Shown: positions 42,972 through 52,509 of the stretch, piece by piece | How the letters are laid out: every line of letters starts with the position of its first letter | How positions within the stretch are numbered: position 1 is the first letter of the stretch | DNA from: Promethearchaeati archaeon SRVP18_Atabeyarchaeia-1 | Lineage (GTDB): Archaea; Asgardarchaeota; Atabeyarchaeia; Atabeyarchaeales; Atabeyarchaeaceae | NCBI GenBank assembly: GCA_037308085.1 | Contig: CP147779.1 | Coordinates: 2,272,001-2,336,000 of the forward strand | Length of the DNA stretch: 64,000 bases | Reading direction: 5' to 3' | Notes under the pieces: model-generated | Told to the model about the DNA's origin: nothing | Database searches by the model: none | The model's input: only the letters and a program-made list of their open reading frames with translations | Position numbers and translations under genes: made by a program

Positions 42972-43856
42972 ATGAAAGTTGAAGGATGTGTTACCCCGGT
43001 GGTCACCCCGTTTGACTCTGAGGAGGAAGTAGATGAAGAGTCCCTCAAGGAGATAGTTGACTATTTGGTGGATGGAGGAGCCAGCGGCCTATTCGCTGCT
43101 GGAACCGCGGGAGCATTCTATTTGATGACCCCTGAAGAACGGAAACGGGTAACGAGCATCGTGGTAGAGAAGTCGAACGGAAGAGTCCCAGTCTACGCCG
43201 GAACAGGTGGGATAACCGTCAGAGAAAACTTGGACATCGCAAAGCATGCTAAGGACGTTGGCGCTGATGCTGCAGTAATACTTACACCTTACTACGTTAA
43301 GGTCGAAGATGAGGAGCTCTTTCAATACTTTACGACCTTCGCCAATGCCGTTGACATGGAAGTCATACTCTACAATAATCCATCAAGAGCGGGGAACAAC
43401 ATATCACCAGCGCTGCTTGAGCGAATTGTCAACGAGAACAGCAATGTAATTGCCCTCAAAGACAGTAGCGGAGACCTTGCTCAGTACGGCGAGTACGTGA
43501 TGAGGATGAAGGATAAGATCTCCTTGGTGAGTGGCAAGGACGAGCTAATGCTGGCATCCTTAGCTATGGGCGGGAACGGAGTTGTAAGCGCTGTAAGCAA
43601 CATCGTTCCTGAACTCGTATCACAGATCTTTGCTTCGTTCGAGAGGGGTGACATAAGGAAAGCTCAGGAAATACAGAGCAAGTGCTCCACACTGAAGAAG
43701 TCCTTCGGTGGAGCAGCTTACCCAGCACCAATCCTTGCGGCTCTAGATCTCCTAGGAATGAGGGCTGGCAGACCAAGATCGCCAGTGCTGCCCTTGAAAA
43801 ATGAACAAAAAGAAAATATCAGGCAGGCGCTGAAGAGCATCGGAAAGCTACATTGA
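42972..43856 (+). CDS. DHDPS/aldolase family (DapA-like) lyase
   Basis: VTPF, GTAG, TPYY, LYNNPSRAG, Schiff-base KDSSGD; adjacent sugar isomerase suggests a keto-deoxy-sugar aldolase role. Confidence 0.88.
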   Translation: MKVEGCVTPVVTPFDSEEEVDEESLKEIVDYLVDGGASGLFAAGTAGAFYLMTPEERKRVTSIVVEKSNGRVPVYAGTGGITVRENLDIAKHAKDVGADAAVILTPYYVKVEDEELFQYFTTFANAVDMEVILYNNPSRAGNNISPALLERIVNENSNVIALKDSSGDLAQYGEYVMRMKDKISLVSGKDELMLASLAMGGNGVVSAVSNIVPELVSQIFASFERGDIRKAQEIQSKCSTLKKSFGGAAYPAPILAALDLLGMRAGRPRSPVLPLKNEQKENIRQALKSIGKLH

Positions 43857-44037
43857 GAGCCCACAATGCGATCGGGTTAAGAGAGCTTCTTCAGGAAGCT
43901 AAGCAACGACCTGCGAAACTGATCCGTTGCGTCAAACCGGATGCCGTGCTCATTATCTGGCGAGAGCATCAAGAATTCAGAGTTCTGCGCATCAATTGCG
44001 TTCTTGGTGGTGTGCGCCATCCCTAGTCACGCGCGCG

Positions 44038-44799
44038 TCAGGATTCCAGCGATGAAGGCAAGGACGCTCCTCTTGCTGGTATCACATTTATTCCTTTTTC
44101 AGTGATTACCATGGGACTTGTCTTGGACTCATGAAGAGTTCCTCTCATCTTGACCACTGTAAGTCCTCGTTCAAACTTTCCACCGTGCCTTATCTGTTCC
44201 AGAAAGATCACGCCATCAGATATGAACTCCTCCACGTCATAGCGGCTTATCTGCCCCTTCCCGCGCCCCTCCGATATCAGGAGGGTTGTGCAACCGAGTT
44301 CTTTCAACGTGGCGATCAGCCGGTGGATGGCGTGCCGTATCGCGCCAGGTTCTTCGATGACGAGTTCAAGCCCAGGTATTGAGTCGAGTACTGCCCTCTT
44401 AGCATTCGTCGTTTTCTGGAGTTGGCTTATAGCCAACAGTAGAGTGTTCATGTTCAGGAGGCGGGTGACTTCGTCTCTGCCAGCATATGGAACCCTCGAC
44501 TTGGGCGAAGCAATATCTATTATCCCCAGTTTGCCATCTTTCTCCAGCTTCTCCAGATCCCACCCAAAACCTTTCATATCAGCTCTGACTGCTGAAGGTG
44601 ACTCTTCAGTTGTAATAAGAATACCATTCTCTCCGAACTTAGTGACACCTTCGACCAAGAATTGGATGCCCAAAATACTCTTTCCCGTGCCACATCCTCC
44701 AGTGACCAGAATGCACCTTCCTCTTGGAAACCCCCCGTGCAGGAGTTCATCGAGTTGCCCGATTCCAGAAGAAACCAAATTGCCTACCGGTTCACTCAT
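44038..44799 (-). CDS. KaiC-like ATPase, intact motifs
   Basis: SSGIGQLDELLHGGFPRG, GGCGTGKS, TEE, VEEFISDG, VKMRGT. Confidence 0.92.
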   Translation of the reverse strand: MSEPVGNLVSSGIGQLDELLHGGFPRGRCILVTGGCGTGKSILGIQFLVEGVTKFGENGILITTEESPSAVRADMKGFGWDLEKLEKDGKLGIIDIASPKSRVPYAGRDEVTRLLNMNTLLLAISQLQKTTNAKRAVLDSIPGLELVIEEPGAIRHAIHRLIATLKELGCTTLLISEGRGKGQISRYDVEEFISDGVIFLEQIRHGGKFERGLTVVKMRGTLHESKTSPMVITEKGINVIPARGASLPSSLES

Positions 44800-45152
44800 T
44801 GCTCGCACCTTCTGCCATAACACCTAATACTCGAAGCCCAGCGCCAAGGGAATACTCTCCTGACGCAGGCGAGTCCAGAATCTGTCAAAGAGCTCCTTTT
44901 TTCTGATTCTCCGCTGAAAGACATAATGGGGCAATCCCATATTTAAGCTGTGAATCGTTTTCAACGCCTCTCCTCCTAGCAACGAGGAGCCGGCGCGAAT
45001 ATTATTCGAAACCAGCCAGTTGCTGTTCCACACCTCGATTCCCATCATCTGGCGTATCCCACATATTTTGGCTTTCTTTCCTCATTTCATGTCAAGTTGC
45101 GCCATCGTTATTCTACTCGGTCGCCCTGTACTCGTCTCAGACTTATCGTGTT

Positions 45153-45869
45153 TCACTCCGTAGCCGGTTGTGAGAGCCCCTCTGTTCGCTGGATCTCGAA
45201 CAACAGATCACGCAAACTTGTAGAAGAGTAAGGTAGATTCAGACTGGTAGCGACAAGATTCAGACGGTCTAACAATACTTTCAGATTATGGGCTAGCGGG
45301 ATATCCAGCGCTTCGATAGTTTTCAGATCCATTTCGACAACCGGTTTCATCGCACCAACTATTTTCATGATCAAGTTATCTTGCTCTGATATAAGTGTAC
45401 CTTCCTGGGCGCTTTGCCCGCTATCTAGGTCCAGCAGCCTGCATGTCTCCGCAAAGATCTCCTTCGCGAAAGAATCATCAGGATTACAGCTATCTGCAAG
45501 TTTCGCGTTGAAGCCTGCTAAGAAATCTACTATCTCGTCGATCTTGTCAGACACTAGTTTTGGCGCTCTTATACTAAAGAAGACAATGAATGAATAGTAC
45601 CCGAGAGCCGGTAGGCTCCCAAGGGTTCCGAAGCCTATGGCCTCTATTTCGTCCATTGTTATCACTATGCCGGCTGTCTTTCCCTTCGTTGTGTTGAGTT
45701 GTATCATGGACTGCATTGCCAGCTGATTGGCTTGCGCCTCAGCGAGGAAACCTGCAGGGTACCTTGTTATAGGCGTCGGCCCAGATGAGAGGTCGAACCT
45801 GGAAATGAATACCCCTTTGACATATCTTGATGGGATCATGTTGGACGAGCTTGCTGCCAATTCCCTCAT
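45153..45869 (-). CDS. longin/uDENN-like protein
   Basis: N-terminal VFISRFDLSSGPTPITRYP, of the F-D/H-x3-GP-x4-YP type; paralog of 45969-46580. Confidence 0.6.
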   Translation of the reverse strand: MRELAASSSNMIPSRYVKGVFISRFDLSSGPTPITRYPAGFLAEAQANQLAMQSMIQLNTTKGKTAGIVITMDEIEAIGFGTLGSLPALGYYSFIVFFSIRAPKLVSDKIDEIVDFLAGFNAKLADSCNPDDSFAKEIFAETCRLLDLDSGQSAQEGTLISEQDNLIMKIVGAMKPVVEMDLKTIEALDIPLAHNLKVLLDRLNLVATSLNLPYSSTSLRDLLFEIQRTEGLSQPATE

Positions 45870-45968
45870 AACCTCTCATTTTTCATTGTGCATAATTCAT
45901 AACTGCCGTGAGCTTCTCTATCTTCCGAACGCGGGATTCTGCGTGGATCACTTTTCCCCTCGGCATTG

Positions 45969-46580
45969 TCAGTACTTTAGTTGAGCCTTTGACTCCTGAA
46001 GCACGGTTAGGAGCTGGGCGATTCGAGCCTTAGTCCCAGGCGCCACAAGTTCCAGTCTATTAAGATGTCCAGACTCAATGAAGGAGCTGATTGCAAGTAT
46101 CGTTTTGTCAGCAACCGCTTCTAACTTGTCACCGGGTTCGTTAAGAGCTTCCTCTTCATGAGACTTCTCGCAAACCCTTCGCACTCCTTCGAATAGCCTA
46201 AGTGCGGCATCTCCAGGGTGTCGCCTCACATTCTGCAACTCGCTTATTATGAGGCTTCTAATAAGGGGATACGTCTCCCAGATCATCGATTTAGCTTCTT
46301 CCCCAAACATCACTATTATCCCGGTAGCACCTTCAACGCTACTCCCCTCGGTCCCAACCACACCAACTTTGCCTATTTGGGAAAAAGACATAATTGAGCA
46401 GAGAGCCTCTTTCTTCCCTGTTGAGAGTAGCAACATGGCGTCCTCGGCGACATCCTTTAGCCCTTCGCCCGCGATGAATCCCTGTGGGTAGATAAAAGCC
46501 GGAGCTGGGCCCAGGAGCATGTCAAATCTGGTCACAATCACTCCCTCGAAAAGTAATCGCTCTGGTGACCTGCGCGACAA
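45969..46580 (-). CDS. longin/uDENN-like protein
   Basis: VIVTRFDMLLGPAPAFIYP. Confidence 0.6.
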   Translation of the reverse strand: MSRRSPERLLFEGVIVTRFDMLLGPAPAFIYPQGFIAGEGLKDVAEDAMLLLSTGKKEALCSIMSFSQIGKVGVVGTEGSSVEGATGIIVMFGEEAKSMIWETYPLIRSLIISELQNVRRHPGDAALRLFEGVRRVCEKSHEEEALNEPGDKLEAVADKTILAISSFIESGHLNRLELVAPGTKARIAQLLTVLQESKAQLKY

Positions 46581-47005
46581 TCTGGTTAACCCCCATTACC
46601 CCATCGTGCGTGCACTGCTCGAACACCGTGTTCAGCTAGTAGAGTAGTTGAAGTTCCTTTTATTTTCTTCTTACTTATCTTCTACACAGAATTGTCTCTC
46701 CGGGCTCCCTCGATGGTTAAGCGCTGACACCGAGACTCAACCATAGAACACCACATCCGCGATAGCCCTTTTCTCGCCTCGACTAGAGAAATTGGAGTCT
46801 GGCAAACAAGCTCTGGCCTGACTTGGGTCGGGAAAGGCACATCAAGCGCTAGGATGACTATGCGCATTATTAAGTTCATTTGCCTATGAACATTGTGAGC
46901 ATCGAAAGCGAGGTACGTTGATAGACTGTGCCCTGCAGAAATGACAACATTTATGATGCAGTGCGTGGTTAGCAGAAACTGACATGAGGGGGTGTTCTTC
47001 TGTAA

Positions 47006-47539
47006 ATGCCCATAATCAAAATTCTGATAATGGGTCTGCCAGCGTCCGGCAAGACAACTTTCGTCAAGCATGTCTTTGAAGGAAAGGAATTGAACGATCT
47101 GAAGGACTACATTCCGACATATGGCGTGAATATAGCATTGTATAACTACAAGGGCTCGGAGGACATTAAGATCTCAACCTTCGATTGTGGTGGTCAGACA
47201 AGTTTTATCGACACCTATTTGACTGATCAATGGGTTCCCAGACTCTTCGCGGAAGTCTCGGCTCTTTTCTTCGTGGTAGATTCGTCATCGAAGAAGACTC
47301 TCAAGGATGCCAACAAGCTTTTCCACAAGTACCTTGAGAACGTATACAAGTATTCTGAAGACGTAGTGATCCATGTACTGGCATCAAAATGGGACAAACA
47401 TACCATCACAAGAGATGAACTCAAGGAAGCATTCTCGGATCTCGACGTTCGTCCCATATCCGTCGTCGACGGTTCAGCCAGACAGGTTACGCAGGCGATA
47501 ATGGACAGGCTAATCAGCGAAAGGAAGACGAAAAAGTGA
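47006..47539 (+). CDS. small GTPase, RagA/Gtr1-like G domain
   Basis: G1 GLPASGKT, G2 PTYG, G3 DCGGQ followed by FIDTYLTDQ...LFAEV, G4 SKWD, G5-like ISVVD. Confidence 0.88.
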   Translation: MPIIKILIMGLPASGKTTFVKHVFEGKELNDLKDYIPTYGVNIALYNYKGSEDIKISTFDCGGQTSFIDTYLTDQWVPRLFAEVSALFFVVDSSSKKTLKDANKLFHKYLENVYKYSEDVVIHVLASKWDKHTITRDELKEAFSDLDVRPISVVDGSARQVTQAIMDRLISERKTKK

Positions 47540-47609
47540 CTCCCCTGCTTCTCCCATCTGCCAGCAATCATCGCTACGAGCAGGACTAGCAGGCTCTTGA
47601 CCTCCGCAA

Positions 47610-48362
47610 TTACCTTCGTCCCACCGTGAGCCTGCCAGTTCCACCGTTCCTCGATACTGGAATCCATTTGGACTCGAAGTTGGTCCTTCTCATCTTGGAT
47701 ATGCAGATCTCCTTGCTTATGAAGCCCTGTTGCTCTGCGTTTCTGAAGAGTATGACGGAATCGAGCAACTGCTGAAGAGAGGCCACAGTCTGCACGTCAT
47801 GCATTCCCTCCGTCAATATGAAGATCGAGGTTGAGTTTGACTCCTTGAGCTTGGCAACCATCACGGAAGCTAGTTGATAGACAGACTGGGGAGCCGCATT
47901 CATGAGCAATGACGACAGAATATCGACTGAAACCCTTATCCGCCTACCCCCTATCTTTTCGGTCGCTGTCGATACCGCGGCCGCTACGTGATTCAAATCC
48001 ATTGATGATCTTACAACCTTATCAATCACCTGAGGATAGGGAACATCAGTTGTCCGCCAACTGTAGCAATCAACGAACATTAGGCTGGACCTCTGCTCCT
48101 GCGTCAACTCGTCAAAGTCGAGGCCCACTTCCTGCCAACTCTCCTTGACTTCGTCAACAGATTCGTTTGAGAGAACCATCACTCCACCTTCACCAGCCCT
48201 CAACCCATCGGCTATGAATTGCAGGCAGAAAATGTGTTTCCAGCTTCCTGGAGGCCCGTACAGAAGAGTCGATGAACCCTGAGGTATTCCCCCCTCGATC
48301 AATGCATCAAGTCCTTCTATTCCTGAACTCATTCTTCTGCTCATTTCTCGCAGCTCCTCCAA
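47610..48362 (-). CDS. KaiC/RAD55-like protein with degenerate Walker A
   Basis: SSGIEGLDALIEGGIP, GPPGSWKH, VDCYSW, ISKMR. Confidence 0.88.
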   Translation of the reverse strand: MEELREMSRRMSSGIEGLDALIEGGIPQGSSTLLYGPPGSWKHIFCLQFIADGLRAGEGGVMVLSNESVDEVKESWQEVGLDFDELTQEQRSSLMFVDCYSWRTTDVPYPQVIDKVVRSSMDLNHVAAAVSTATEKIGGRRIRVSVDILSSLLMNAAPQSVYQLASVMVAKLKESNSTSIFILTEGMHDVQTVASLQQLLDSVILFRNAEQQGFISKEICISKMRRTNFESKWIPVSRNGGTGRLTVGRR

Positions 48363-48372
48363 GAGTTCCCTG

Positions 48373-48990
48373 CTAATGCTCCCATTCGTGTCCTGTCATT
48401 TCCAAGTTGTACCTAAACTCGCAGCATGAATCACCTTTCGCGGTGCACTTCGATTCGACGAAGCCCACCTTTCTTCCTAGGGAATGCTCCAAGGCACCCG
48501 CAATTACTCCTCCAGTAAAATAGCAGATACTCACTCCTATGTCCATAATCCCGCAACAGTCGGCACACTCTTCGACCTGATAAACCAACAGCTTGCCTTT
48601 CTCGAATTCAGTCAACGTCAAGAGACCGGTGCCAGTCGATTTGAATCCTGTCTGTAGCGCAGAGTACCCGGTTGAGAGTCTTGCCTCCTTGAGATTCTCA
48701 GCTTCAGCAAAATCACGGTAACCTGGGAGTTTCTGAAGCATTGGCATGCCTCCTTCTGTAAGTCCAATCCCAGTCTGCCTTCCAGCCTCGAAAAGCACGT
48801 GACCCATAGACTCAGCCAAGACCAGGGCTGCAAGCACTGGCCTCTGGTAAGTCAGTAGGTCAACTGAATCCCCAAGTTTCTCTCGGATCCTATCCTTGTA
48901 TCCTGGCGTGTGAAGCATTCTCTCAAGTTGCGCTTTCGTGAGTTCTCTAATGATCTCCTTCTCTCTCACAACACGTGCTCTCGTCGACAT
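48373..48990 (-). CDS. V4R-domain protein
   Basis: EECADC...ICYFTGGVIAG...ESKCTAKGDSCCEF. Confidence 0.88.
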   Translation of the reverse strand: MSTRARVVREKEIIRELTKAQLERMLHTPGYKDRIREKLGDSVDLLTYQRPVLAALVLAESMGHVLFEAGRQTGIGLTEGGMPMLQKLPGYRDFAEAENLKEARLSTGYSALQTGFKSTGTGLLTLTEFEKGKLLVYQVEECADCCGIMDIGVSICYFTGGVIAGALEHSLGRKVGFVESKCTAKGDSCCEFRYNLEMTGHEWEH

Positions 48991-49040
48991 CTCTTAACTT
49001 TCTCCTCGCGCTCTCCTTTATTTCTTTCTTCATTGACAGA

Positions 49041-49634
49041 CTATACTGTATATCTGAATTCACAGTTTGGGTCACCTTTTGCGCAACACTTCGATTCAAC
49101 AAATCCTACTTTTCTGCCAAGAACGCCTTCTAGAGTGCCAGCGATATTTCCACCAAGGAAGTAACATACACTCTGTCCCAAGTCTCCGACTCCATAGCAT
49201 ATGGCACACTCTTCAACCTGAACCACAATCAGCTTGTTCTTCTCAAATTCGCTTAACGTTAGGAGACCCTGGCGAGTTGTTTCTGCAAAAATCTGAAGAG
49301 TCGTAAACTCATCTGAAAGCCTAGCCTCCTCCAAGTTATTGGCATCAGCAATGCTACGAAAACCCGGTTGTTTCCGTACCTCGGGCCACATTTCCTCGAG
49401 CATGTAGGTTGCGGGTCTCCTGCCTGCCTCAAAAAGGATTGGTCCCATAGACCTGCTGAGAGACAAGGCACCAAGCATGCGTTCCTGGTAGGATAATAGG
49501 TCAACCGAGTCCCCAAGTTTTTCACGAATTCCGATCTTGCTAGGTGAACTTAGCAATTTCTCAAACTGCATTCTTGCCATGGCCTTGAGGACCTTCTCGG
49601 CGATCGTGAGCAGACAACCTCCCCCAATAATCAA
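49041..49634 (-). CDS. V4R-domain protein
   Basis: EECAIC...VCYFLGGNIAG...ESKCCAKGDPNCEF. Confidence 0.88.
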   Translation of the reverse strand: MIIGGGCLLTIAEKVLKAMARMQFEKLLSSPSKIGIREKLGDSVDLLSYQERMLGALSLSRSMGPILFEAGRRPATYMLEEMWPEVRKQPGFRSIADANNLEEARLSDEFTTLQIFAETTRQGLLTLSEFEKNKLIVVQVEECAICYGVGDLGQSVCYFLGGNIAGTLEGVLGRKVGFVESKCCAKGDPNCEFRYTV

Positions 49635-49663
49635 TCCAATCGATTAGCTATTAGCGTTGTATT

Positions 49664-50245
49664 TCATGAAATGCTACACCTGAATTCACAATAGGAATCT
49701 CCTTTAGCTTGGCATAGTGATTCGACGAAGCCGACGTTTTTTCCAATTACGACCTCCATTGCGCCAGCGAGCTGACCTCCGAGATAGTAACATACGCTTT
49801 CTCCGAGGTTAGGGAGCCCAGTGCAGGACACACATTCTTCAACTTGGAAAATGAGGAGTTTCCCTTTTTCGTATCTGACCATGTTTATAATCCCCGTACC
49901 AGTCATCTGATACATTGCTTGAACAATCGACCACTCAGTAGAGCGTTGGGCTTCCTGCAGCGTACTAGACTTATTGATACTCTGATAGTTTGGCAGCTTC
50001 TGTATCATGGATAGGGATTTCGTGGAGAGAGCCCTTCCAACTTTCTTTCCAGCTTCTGCTAGTACCGGTCCCATGGATTTGCTTAGAGCGAGTACTCCTA
50101 TCACGCGTTCTTGGTATGCCCACATGTCTATGAAATTGCCGAGCCTTTTGCGGAGCCTAGCGTTGACCTTTGGGTTCTCTATCAGTCTTTCAAACTGCCT
50201 TTCAGCTAACGCATCTAGAATATCGTCCGCTTTCAATTGAACCAC
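49664..50245 (-). CDS. V4R-domain protein
   Basis: EECVSC...VCYYLGGQLAG...ESLCQAKGDSYCEF. Confidence 0.88.
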   Translation of the reverse strand: MVQLKADDILDALAERQFERLIENPKVNARLRKRLGNFIDMWAYQERVIGVLALSKSMGPVLAEAGKKVGRALSTKSLSMIQKLPNYQSINKSSTLQEAQRSTEWSIVQAMYQMTGTGIINMVRYEKGKLLIFQVEECVSCTGLPNLGESVCYYLGGQLAGAMEVVIGKNVGFVESLCQAKGDSYCEFRCSIS

Positions 50246-50281
50246 GTCACTCCTTCCATGTTTTGATGTCCTTCCCTACTT

Positions 50282-50866
50282 CTAGCTTTCCCTAATCAAT
50301 CTGTTTAGATTCTCGATTTCCCTTCTATACTTGGTCCGCAGTTCTGGATCGTCTGCAAGATGTCCCCTGTTCTCGGCAGCTTTATTGATTAGATTAGTGA
50401 GTGAATCCTTCCGAGTCGTGAGTTCCGACGCGAGGAGTTTCGTTAGTCTCTGGCCCAGTCTTATGGGCGTCCTCACCGCGTCTTGGGTTTTGACTGGGGC
50501 GTAAGGTGGCTCACTGCTCTTCTGCGAGATAGGATCATCTTCACAAATCGCGGAATTTGGGAACTTGTCCATGTCGTTTTCAGCGAATGCATTCCTCACG
50601 TTCTCATGGAACCCCGAAGTACTATCCTCGTCGTGAGAAGCATCGACCAAAGCCGCGAAGATCAGTGATGGAGATTCGTTGAAGGCAGACTTTGAGGTTC
50701 CTGATGCCATGATTCTTATGTCAACGCCGCGAATCTCTTTCATGAACGCGATCATCGCCTTGAGGAGACCACTAACAAGGTAGCAGTTCACAAGTGTCGT
50801 CCTGAAACCCTCATGGTAGATGCAGATTCCATTCTTCTCTGAGACAACGCATGGTCCATGGGTCAT
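50282..50866 (-). CDS. longin-domain protein (possibly decaying)
   Basis: KNGICIYH...LVSGLLKAMIAFMKEI...LIFAALVD longin pattern. Confidence 0.62.
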   Translation of the reverse strand: MTHGPCVVSEKNGICIYHEGFRTTLVNCYLVSGLLKAMIAFMKEIRGVDIRIMASGTSKSAFNESPSLIFAALVDASHDEDSTSGFHENVRNAFAENDMDKFPNSAICEDDPISQKSSEPPYAPVKTQDAVRTPIRLGQRLTKLLASELTTRKDSLTNLINKAAENRGHLADDPELRTKYRREIENLNRLIRES

Positions 50867-51693: not shown

Positions 51694-52509
51694 ATGATAA
51701 AAGCGGTTTGGATCCTATTGGACATCGGCCCGTGCCTGTACAGGTACGCTGCAGAGAAGCGATTCCAGGAGACAGATGAGAATCTCTTCTCAGGTTTCTT
51801 TGTTGCTTTGGAGACCTTCGCAAAAAGCATTGGCAGCGAGGAAGTCTTGAGAGTCGAACTGAGAGACTTGGCTCTTTGGTTCATGAAGGAAGCCAACGTC
51901 GTCTTCGTTGTGGCATCCGACAGAAGCGAGGATATGACTGAGATTCTGTTGAAGGTCAGTCGAGTGTTCAGTGAGGCTGCTCCAGATCTCCGTGCCCCTT
52001 TCTATAATCCACTTATCTCATCTGATGTGGCGGCACTCGAACAGAGGATTGATTCCAAAATCAGGGAGGTAATTCTATCACCAGTACCACCAGTTGGGGG
52101 GCTTGCCGAACAACTTGCCAAGGTAAAGGATGCGGTGACTTCGGCACTGCGCAAACCTCGCCCAGCCAAGCAGTCTGTCATAGCTGTGCAGGCTATCAGG
52201 CCAATTGAGGAGACAATTCCAGAACCCACTGAACCCAAGACAACTCAGCAACATGTTAGAGTGACGGGGGAGATGATTCCGAAACTGGAAAGGCCCCTAA
52301 CAGATGTTCTTAGAGAGAGGGAAAGACTCGTCAAGCGCTTCGGGGTTGCAGCGGTAGACATATTACATCATGCTGATGGCAAAATGACAGTGAGCGAAAT
52401 AGTAGCGGCGTCGAAGGCAGAGAAGAGTACGATTGAGGACGTTCTGAGTTTTGCTCAGAAGTTGGGGATTGTTGAATTCAAACAGAAAAAGCAGTATGCA
52501 AGCCCCTGA
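51694..52509 (+). CDS. longin domain plus C-terminal winged-helix protein
   Basis: MIKAVWILLDIGPCLY...DENLFSGFFVALETFAKSIG; tail ILHHADGKMTVSEIV...LGIVEF. Confidence 0.75.
   Translation: MIKAVWILLDIGPCLYRYAAEKRFQETDENLFSGFFVALETFAKSIGSEEVLRVELRDLALWFMKEANVVFVVASDRSEDMTEILLKVSRVFSEAAPDLRAPFYNPLISSDVAALEQRIDSKIREVILSPVPPVGGLAEQLAKVKDAVTSALRKPRPAKQSVIAVQAIRPIEETIPEPTEPKTTQQHVRVTGEMIPKLERPLTDVLRERERLVKRFGVAAVDILHHADGKMTVSEIVAASKAEKSTIEDVLSFAQKLGIVEFKQKKQYASP

Follow-up and report, generated by a model that had tools for sequence, protein, structure and literature searches.

Do the two longin-like proteins encoded beside a small GTPase in an Asgard archaeon represent an early form of the heterodimeric complexes that regulate eukaryotic Rag GTPases, or a device of a different kind? 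The question is raised by a locus in Promethearchaeati archaeon SRVP18_Atabeyarchaeia-1, in whose single-contig, 2.8-Mb genome (estimated completeness 96.9%) we analyzed a stretch of 64,000 nucleotides (positions 2,272,001-2,336,000 of contig CP147779.1), hereafter the window. A first-pass annotation had described a RagA/Gtr1-like GTPase gene placed divergently from two NPRL2/DENN-like paralogs, here termed A and B, and had suggested a proto-Rag/GATOR module. Our own answer, which we hold tentatively and with slightly less than even confidence, is that A and B form a longin heterodimer devoid of an arginine finger, which would hold a small GTPase and be wired to KaiC-like ATPases; the pair might be a GTPase-activating protein (GAP) or a guanine nucleotide exchange factor (GEF). 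Longins of Asgard archaea that carry a Gly-Pro (GP) motif have already been published (Traffic 2025, PMC12290439), and what makes the present locus notable is the missing finger together with a Rag-like GTPase that has no roadblock domain. The genes, coordinates, divergent layout and motifs given in the first-pass annotation were all recovered. The argument turns on the following features:

44038-44823, minus strand: KaiC-like ATPase, 261 aa, with an intact Walker A motif GGCGTGKS (Pfam KaiC 1.5e-71)
45153-45869, minus strand: paralog B, 238 aa, longin domain plus helical bundle, built as in A
45969-46580, minus strand: paralog A, 203 aa, TTG start, GP-motif longin domain plus four-helix C-terminal bundle
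47006-47539, plus strand: Rag/Gtr-like small GTPase, 177 aa, G domain only

A and B are paralogous longin proteins

BLASTP aligned A with B at 31% identity over 102 aa (E 3e-11), showing that the two are real paralogs. Their family is small: searches of 5.8 billion and of 1.84 billion proteins gave 14 clusters and 23 representatives, respectively. Its members sort into an A group and a B group, with a third group lying farther away from both. Pfam gave no match for A or B, including DENN, Folliculin and NPR2, and the A2 profile, searched against the PDB, retrieved mostly designed helical bundles that matched the C-terminal helices. Sequence similarity to the eukaryotic longin GAPs stayed at noise level, with NPRL2 reaching only E 0.29 in the PDB search and Afi1 E 0.073 in a Pfam scan of 30 family members, which returned noise only.

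AlphaFold (AF2) models of A and B were obtained with predicted local distance difference test (pLDDT) values of 89.3 and 81.7, respectively. In both models, the elements follow one another as β-β-α-β-β-β-α and then as four or five helices, an order that identifies each protein as a longin domain plus a helical bundle; in A, the longin domain covers approximately residues 11-118. Structural comparison with VIA-align placed the solved longin domain of a Lokiarchaeota Roadblock-Longin protein (8yqg) first for both paralogs (Z 15.4 for A and 14.6 for B). The best eukaryotic matches belonged to the FLCN/FNIP/Lst4, C9orf72-SMCR8 and NPRL2/3 class at Z 10-13, namely the Lst4 longin (A 13.3, B 11.7), C9orf72-SMCR8 (A 11.7, B 11.4), chains of the FLCN-FNIP2 complex (A 11.3, B 12.2 with 8dhb_I) and GATOR1 NPRL2/3 (~11 for A and ~11, or 11.3, for B). 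Longins of SNARE, TRAPP and DENND1 proteins followed at Z 8-9.8 and roadblock proteins at ~7.5-8, and the Foldseek ranking agreed with this order. A finer assignment, of A to FLCN/NPRL2 and of B to FNIP/NPRL3, was dropped, as Z differences below 1 amount to a tie. In the ESM Atlas, A lies beside Asgard clusters of whose members 19% carry the NPR2 family; its structural neighbors there include C9orf72, a Heimdall Folliculin-like cluster, Avl9, NPR2 and SMCR8, with a cluster of 341-aa archaeal GTP-binding proteins as the best.

The longin-like folds expected in the first-pass annotation are thus borne out by the AF2 models, Foldseek and VIA-align, with the FLCN/FNIP/Lst4, C9orf72-SMCR8 and NPRL2/3 class ranking first among eukaryotic proteins. 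The label "DENN-like" fits in part: the longin (uDENN) portion is present, whereas a DENN domain is not. Past the longin domain, the models of A and B contain helices only, with neither DENN nor NPRL2/3 C-terminal domains. DENN-type GEFs are tripartite (uDENN-cDENN-dDENN), whereas A and B possess only the uDENN-like longin part, and their matches to DENND1A/B, at Z 8.5-9.7, rank lower than those to the FLCN/NPRL class.

A 280-aa distant relative of A and B (G209; L035:1499-2341, minus strand) matched Pfam Folliculin at E 4.3e-4 and 20.6 bits, compared with a cut-off of 23.3. In this analysis, no other protein connected the family at the sequence level with a eukaryotic family of GAP longins.

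A GP hairpin without an arginine finger

Gly-Pro at the β1-β2 hairpin marks C9orf72, SMCR8, FLCN and NPRL2 and is missing from FNIP2, NPRL3, adaptins, TRAPP subunits and DENND proteins; Asgard longins carry it together with an arginine finger, their partners having been left open (ArfR or Rag/Gtr GTPases) and GAP activity having been raised as a possibility (PMC12290439). C9orf72 touches Arf1 through W33 and D34, and its Arf1 GAP activity is almost wholly lost in the double mutant W33G/D34K (PMC12290439). The corresponding hairpin motifs are RFDMLLGPAPAFIYP in A and RFDLSSGPTPITRYP in B, and a 30-sequence alignment showed that all three groups of the family share R/K-F-D-x2-L-G-P-x-P-x3-[YF]-P-x2-F, in keeping with the first-pass observation that both paralogs carry the hairpin of GAP-type longins. 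In the models, the hairpins F19-D20-x3-G24-P25 of A and F25-D26-x3-G30-P31 of B each place Gly-Pro at the start of strand 2 (E24-31 and E30-37, respectively). The F-D-x3-G-P spacing equals that of C9orf72 W33-D34/G38-P39 (aromatic-Asp-x3-Gly-Pro).

The catalytic arginine fingers of the eukaryotic complexes are NPRL2 R78, SMCR8 R147 and FLCN R164. A finger of this kind, for which the first-pass annotation had proposed to look, was sought in A and B and none was found. The position was mapped from the VIA ranges (A 10-141 against NPRL2 6-144), which is approximate and involves no residue-level superposition; NPRL2 Arg78 falls at about residues 79-84 of A, in the β4-β5 loop adjoining the GP hairpin, and FLCN Arg164 presumably sits in the equivalent loop. 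In A the loop has the sequence GSSVEG and in B PAL; Arg and Lys are missing from the approximate finger position, and neither the A group nor the B group has a conserved Arg/Lys column in the loop, Arg occurring nearby in a few distant members. The basic residues that are conserved occupy other places: R18 belongs to strand 1, K56/K57 of A and K62/K64 of B to the α1-β3 loop, and R119, R128 and R186 to A's helical regions. Because the finger is missing and the conserved basic residues are located elsewhere, A and B resemble the GTPase-holding, C9orf72-type partner and not the catalytic subunit. The locus indicates that a GP hairpin can exist without an arginine finger, and the holding of a GTPase thereby becomes separable from the catalysis of hydrolysis in the ancestry of longin regulators.

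The adjacent GTPase is Rag/Gtr-like

The GTPase encoded divergently from A contains the motifs IIKILIMGLPASGKT, DCGGQTSFIDTYLTDQ...LFAEVSALFFVVD, SKWD (G4) and SVVD (G5), with the P-loop GLPASGKT and a switch II DCGGQ that retains the catalytic Gln. Pfam ranked Gtr1_RagA first (4e-22, 79 bits), ahead of Arf (2.7e-17, 63 bits) and Ras (24 bits), and a family profile built from 33 members widened the gap between Gtr1/RagA and Arf when searched against the PDB (Gtr1 63 bits, RagA 62, Arl1 46, Arf1 34.5). The alignment with Gtr1 revealed a common DCGGQ..F..Y...Q...F..V..L block and a non-canonical G4 (SKWD here, hKmD in Gtr1), so that the protein shares the DCGGQ plus F..Y...Q...F..V pattern and the non-canonical G4 with RagA/Gtr1 and the Asgard RagGtr group (10.1101/2024.02.28.582541; PMC10933270). 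Invariant positions of the family include G10, G15, K16, D60-C-G-G-Q64 and K128-W-D130, judging by which the GTPase looks catalytically competent.

The Gtr1_RagA match spans model positions 1-135 of 232, and the protein ends at residue 177; it therefore lacks the C-terminal roadblock region of Rag proteins, as the first-pass annotation held. In contrast to Rag/Gtr proteins, it is only 177 aa long, has no roadblock domain and carries an Arf-like P-loop. A canonical Rag heterodimer formed through the roadblock domain is impossible for this GTPase because the domain is missing.

The closest named homologs, at 64% identity, are labelled Candidatus Njordarchaeota, while the phylum-level genome set and the Atlas neighbors are Asgard (Promethearchaeota). 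A search of the phylum's 301 genomes found close relatives (E < 1e-90) in no GTDB family but the window's own, whose genomes have two or three copies each. Next in rank (1e-39 to 1e-52) come Asgard open reading frames (ORFs) of 299-331 aa that score 86-96 bits on Gtr1_RagA; in two of them the match runs on into the C-terminal region, as far as model position 214 of 232. The window genome has no Gtr1_RagA ORF of ~310 aa, whereas other Asgard GTDB families have one. An alignment search at 1e-8 for longer forms of the GTPase (336-2000 aa) returned none, which is weak evidence, the Rag-like proteins of ~300-330 aa having come from the whole-genome search.

A maximum-likelihood tree was built from archaeal rows only, with no eukaryotic Rag or Arf sequences in it. 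The short GTPase family forms one clade (99/100), which is sister to three Asgard Gtr1_RagA proteins of ~300-310 aa (87/86) and stands apart from Ras-type GTPases (100/99); the Rag+Arf clade has at its base, unresolved, the genome's Arf-like rows, on long branches, and one long Rag-like row. The Arf-like GTPases of the genome (97-110 bits on Arf) and its Ras-like GTPases are separate from the Rag-like family. The Pfam ranking, the PDB profile search and the archaeal-only tree thus agree on the Rag/Gtr-like assignment first proposed. Compared in the tree with archaeal proteins only, the GTPase is, to judge from its sequence, a G domain of the Rag/Gtr family from which the roadblock domain has been lost.

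The small-GTPase set of the genome is modest for an Asgard archaeon, with two Rag-like, two Arf-like and at least eight Ras-family members. One of the two Arf-like GTPases has a 120-aa N-terminal extension.

KaiC-like ATPases are the most conserved neighbors of the longin pair

The tandem order of A followed by B is kept at all loci and in most of the family-carrying genomes examined. A KaiC-like gene flanks the pair at six of eight loci, from two GTDB families: A-B-KaiC is the order at five loci of the window's own family (the window, L004, L005, L001 and L023), and KaiC-KaiC-A-B is found at a locus of a different family (L025, family f7), with no GTPase within ~6 kb. The KaiC-like ATPase is the most conserved neighbor of A-B and is more widely linked to the pair than the GTPase is. 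In the window, its gene lies on the same strand as B, 329 bp downstream. The contigs that carry distant family members (L006-L009) are too short to show gene context.

The GTPase gene adjoins the pair not only in the window. At L004, where A is 72% identical, and at L005, where a contig end cuts the locus, the layout is as in the window, with the GTPase divergent; on a 33.5-kb contig from the same genus (G023/L024), the GTPase lies at the other end of the pair and is convergent with B. The window genome encodes ~17 KaiC-like genes, two GTPases of the Rag-like short family and one A/B pair. With so few family copies in 2.8 Mb, the adjacency of the GTPase to A/B and that of KaiC to A/B are unlikely to have arisen by chance.

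In other lineages, members of the A/B family are linked to small GTPases as well. Two proteins from two other Asgard GTDB families (G296 and G287), L032:900-2117 (minus strand, 405 aa) and L036:888-1928 (minus strand, 346 aa), consist of an N-terminal A/B-profile domain and, fused to it on the C-terminal side, a GTPase of the Ras family (Pfam Ras 163-172 bits). At a further locus (L026, G029:C9:478000-494000), three dispersed A/B-family genes lie within 6 kb, the third of them being followed at 1 kb by the start of a gene for a Ras-family GTPase of 171 aa (Pfam Ras 201 bits). These fusions and neighbors make the link between the longins and small GTPases a general one, although the type of GTPase varies, being Ras-type elsewhere.

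The second Rag-like paralog of the window genome (179 aa, Gtr1_RagA 64.5 bits) is encoded directly after a KaiC gene (268 aa), ~1-2.7 kb past the end of the window (L022:2995-4713 = G000:C1:2336995-2338713). This KaiC gene is preceded by a gene for a thioredoxin/glutaredoxin-like protein (102 aa), and a gene for a TPR protein is convergent downstream of the GTPase; the thioredoxin-KaiC-GTPase-TPR order is also present in L003.

Proposed mechanism and alternative explanations

We propose a mechanism in which A and B, two versions, since diverged, of a GP-motif longin protein specific to Asgard archaea (longin plus helical bundle), would pair through their longin sheets to give a heterodimeric platform that binds a small GTPase. 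The likely client in the window's lineage would be the adjacent roadblock-less Rag/Gtr-like GTPase. Of the subunits found in eukaryotic longin GAPs, A and B each resemble the one that holds the GTPase and not the one with the arginine finger (SMCR8, FLCN, NPRL2), so that any effect on the nucleotide cycle would arise from positioning of the GTPase, as in MglB, or from exchange or scaffolding, and not from an inserted arginine. The KaiC-like ATPases would probably supply the input signal to the pair, and their recurrent linkage to it hints at a route of input for which the eukaryotic systems offer no counterpart. A prediction of the complex of A, B, the GTPase and GTP, made with one alignment per protein chain and no controls, scored 0.17 and 0.14 relative to a mark of 0.32, a result that counts neither for nor against binding.

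Several observations weigh against such a mechanism. The four loci at which the GTPase adjoins A-B all belong to the window's own GTDB family, and even there the arrangement is not constant: at L001, the GTPase slot between the KaiC/DUF7504-like gene and A is empty, with a family GTPase ~16 kb away behind another KaiC, and in a closed genome of the same family (G012), the GTPases lie 40-48 kb away. The Rag-like gene is not adjacent to A-B in families f5, f7 and f14; in the f7 genome G006, which has the order KaiC-KaiC-A-B, a 310-aa Rag-like gene is located ~700 kb away on the same contig. The 96%-complete genome G007 contains the longins and gave no Gtr1_RagA match at E 1e-5. Moreover, the GTPases that are fused to or neighbor the longins in other lineages are Ras-type and not Rag-type, so that client specificity is not fixed. 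The lack of any Arg or Lys at the approximate finger position in the β4-β5 loops counts on the same side.

The main rival explanation, which we consider rather unlikely, is that A and B are accessory or output subunits of the KaiC-like ATPases and that the GTPase gene was inserted recently, in this lineage only, its product having no direct interaction with them. The recurrence of A-B-KaiC at the five loci of the window's own family and of KaiC-KaiC-A-B in f7 with no GTPase nearby, the vacant slot at L001, and the presence of ~17 KaiC-like genes for a single A/B pair would all be expected from it. It is harder to reconcile with the A/B-family longins that are fused to or adjoin small GTPases in other lineages, and a longin fold bearing a C9orf72-like GTPase-contact motif is difficult to explain absent a GTPase. 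The Rag-like paralogs, furthermore, are themselves KaiC-linked, which points to a three-way system rather than to exclusion of the GTPase. Less likely again is that A-B is not a GAP of any kind but a longin-type GEF for the GTPase, in the manner of TRAPP, Mon1-Ccz1 or DENN: most longin/roadblock platforms are GEFs (PMC10933270), an exchange activity would fit the missing arginine finger, and longins of TRAPP, Mon1-Ccz1 and DENND are among the structural matches (Z 7.7-9.7), yet the top matches and the GP motif, which TRAPP and DENND longins lack (PMC12290439), indicate the GAP class.

The explanation that we find least probable is the one implied by the phrase "proto-Rag/GATOR module", in which A-B would be a heterodimeric GAP of the GATOR1/FLCN type and would insert an arginine finger into the Rag-like GTPase next to it. 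In longin class and GP motif the pair does match the eukaryotic GAP longins, the genes are adjacent, the GTPase is Rag-like with the catalytic Gln of DCGGQ in place, and GAP activity of Asgard GP longins has been raised as a possibility (PMC12290439). However, a conserved arginine is missing from the finger position in both paralog groups, no DENN, TINI or DEPDC5-like component and no GATOR1/FLCN C-terminal domain was found, and the linkage to the GTPase is lineage-restricted. The phrase is therefore overstated, and the interpretation offered in the first-pass annotation is, as a whole, partly supported.

The finger-less longin heterodimer could also be embedded in a larger scheme, to which we assign a low probability. 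It would constitute a minimal prokaryotic Rag switch, with a roadblock-less Rag-like GTPase held by a C9orf72-like GP-longin heterodimer under KaiC ATPase/phosphorylation control and with the nearby operon of longin and V4R (Bet3-fold) genes encoding an opposing, TRAPP-like exchange factor. If true, this KaiC-controlled switch would amount to a complete on/off cycle predating eukaryotic Rag-GATOR1/FLCN and TRAPP.

Comparison with known systems

Like the Asgard GP-motif longins (PMC12290439) and the Lokiarchaeota Roadblock-Longin 8yqg, A and B are archaeal longins with Gly-Pro at the β1-β2 hairpin. By the paper's description, the published set of 15 Asgard sequences keeps the arginine finger, whereas A and B lack one where the finger maps. 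Unlike that set and 8yqg, A and B form a stand-alone tandem pair with a helical-bundle tail and are linked to KaiC and to a roadblock-less Rag-like GTPase. As to the partners of Asgard GP longins, a question raised in that work, the locus offers a concrete set of three genes that can be cloned, for the 177-aa Rag-like GTPase and the two short longins, together with a KaiC-like ATPase.

C9orf72-SMCR8, FLCN-FNIP (Lst7-Lst4) and GATOR1 NPRL2-NPRL3 share with A/B the combination of two paralogous longins and a GP hairpin. A and B further resemble these eukaryotic longin GAPs in being encoded together with an adjoining gene from the Rag/Arf client family. In contrast to them, A/B have no arginine finger, no DENN domain, no TINI or C-terminal domains, and no DEPDC5 or WDR41 partner, and the Rag clients of the eukaryotic GAPs possess the roadblock domain that the partner GTPase here lacks.

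A possible working analogy for A-B and its GTPase is provided by MglA-MglB, a prokaryotic system in which a small GTPase is regulated by a dimeric platform of the roadblock/longin superfamily that has no arginine finger (PMC10933270). MglB was matched structurally at Z 7.7-7.8. The analogy has its bounds, as MglB is a roadblock homodimer with a different strand and helix order, whereas the locus encodes two diverged GP longins and a GTPase that is Rag-like and not MglA-like.

Divergent spacer and adjacent V4R operon

Two further features lie between and beside the genes discussed above:

46581-47005, no strand: divergent spacer between A and the GTPase, 425 bp
47610-48362, minus strand: KaiC/DUF7504-like protein, 250 aa, with a degenerate Walker A motif GPPGSWKH (Pfam KaiC 5.2e-33, DUF7504 8e-13)

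The gene order in the window is thus KaiC, B and A, read from right to left on the minus strand, then the GTPase on the plus strand, and then, again on the minus strand, KaiC/DUF7504, three V4R genes and a longin-like gene. As read from the sequence, the starts of the GTPase and of A are each preceded by a GGGGGT-type ribosome-binding sequence, and an A/T-rich box is located farther upstream of each within the spacer. An Rfam scan of 43800-48500 found no family. The spacer also contains a 129-aa ORF (46682-47071, minus strand) that overlaps the start of the GTPase and is probably spurious.

The KaiC/DUF7504-like gene is convergent with the GTPase gene, the two stop codons being 70 bp apart, and is the final gene of the operon formed by the longin-like gene, the three V4R genes and KaiC; it occupies the same position in L001 and L004. 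The island (47610-50866 and 51694-52509) encodes a 194-aa protein, three V4R paralogs and the KaiC/DUF7504 protein itself. A comparison by hhalign of the A/B family with the products of 50282-50866 and 51694-52509 revealed no similarity. Leads from the Atlas (0.88-0.94, with no alignment) place the 194-aa protein and a 271-aa protein near the first longin of Asgard Fuz/Mon1/HPS1-type proteins and near TRAPP sybindin folds. The V4R operon is kept in L001, with two V4R copies, and in L004, with four.

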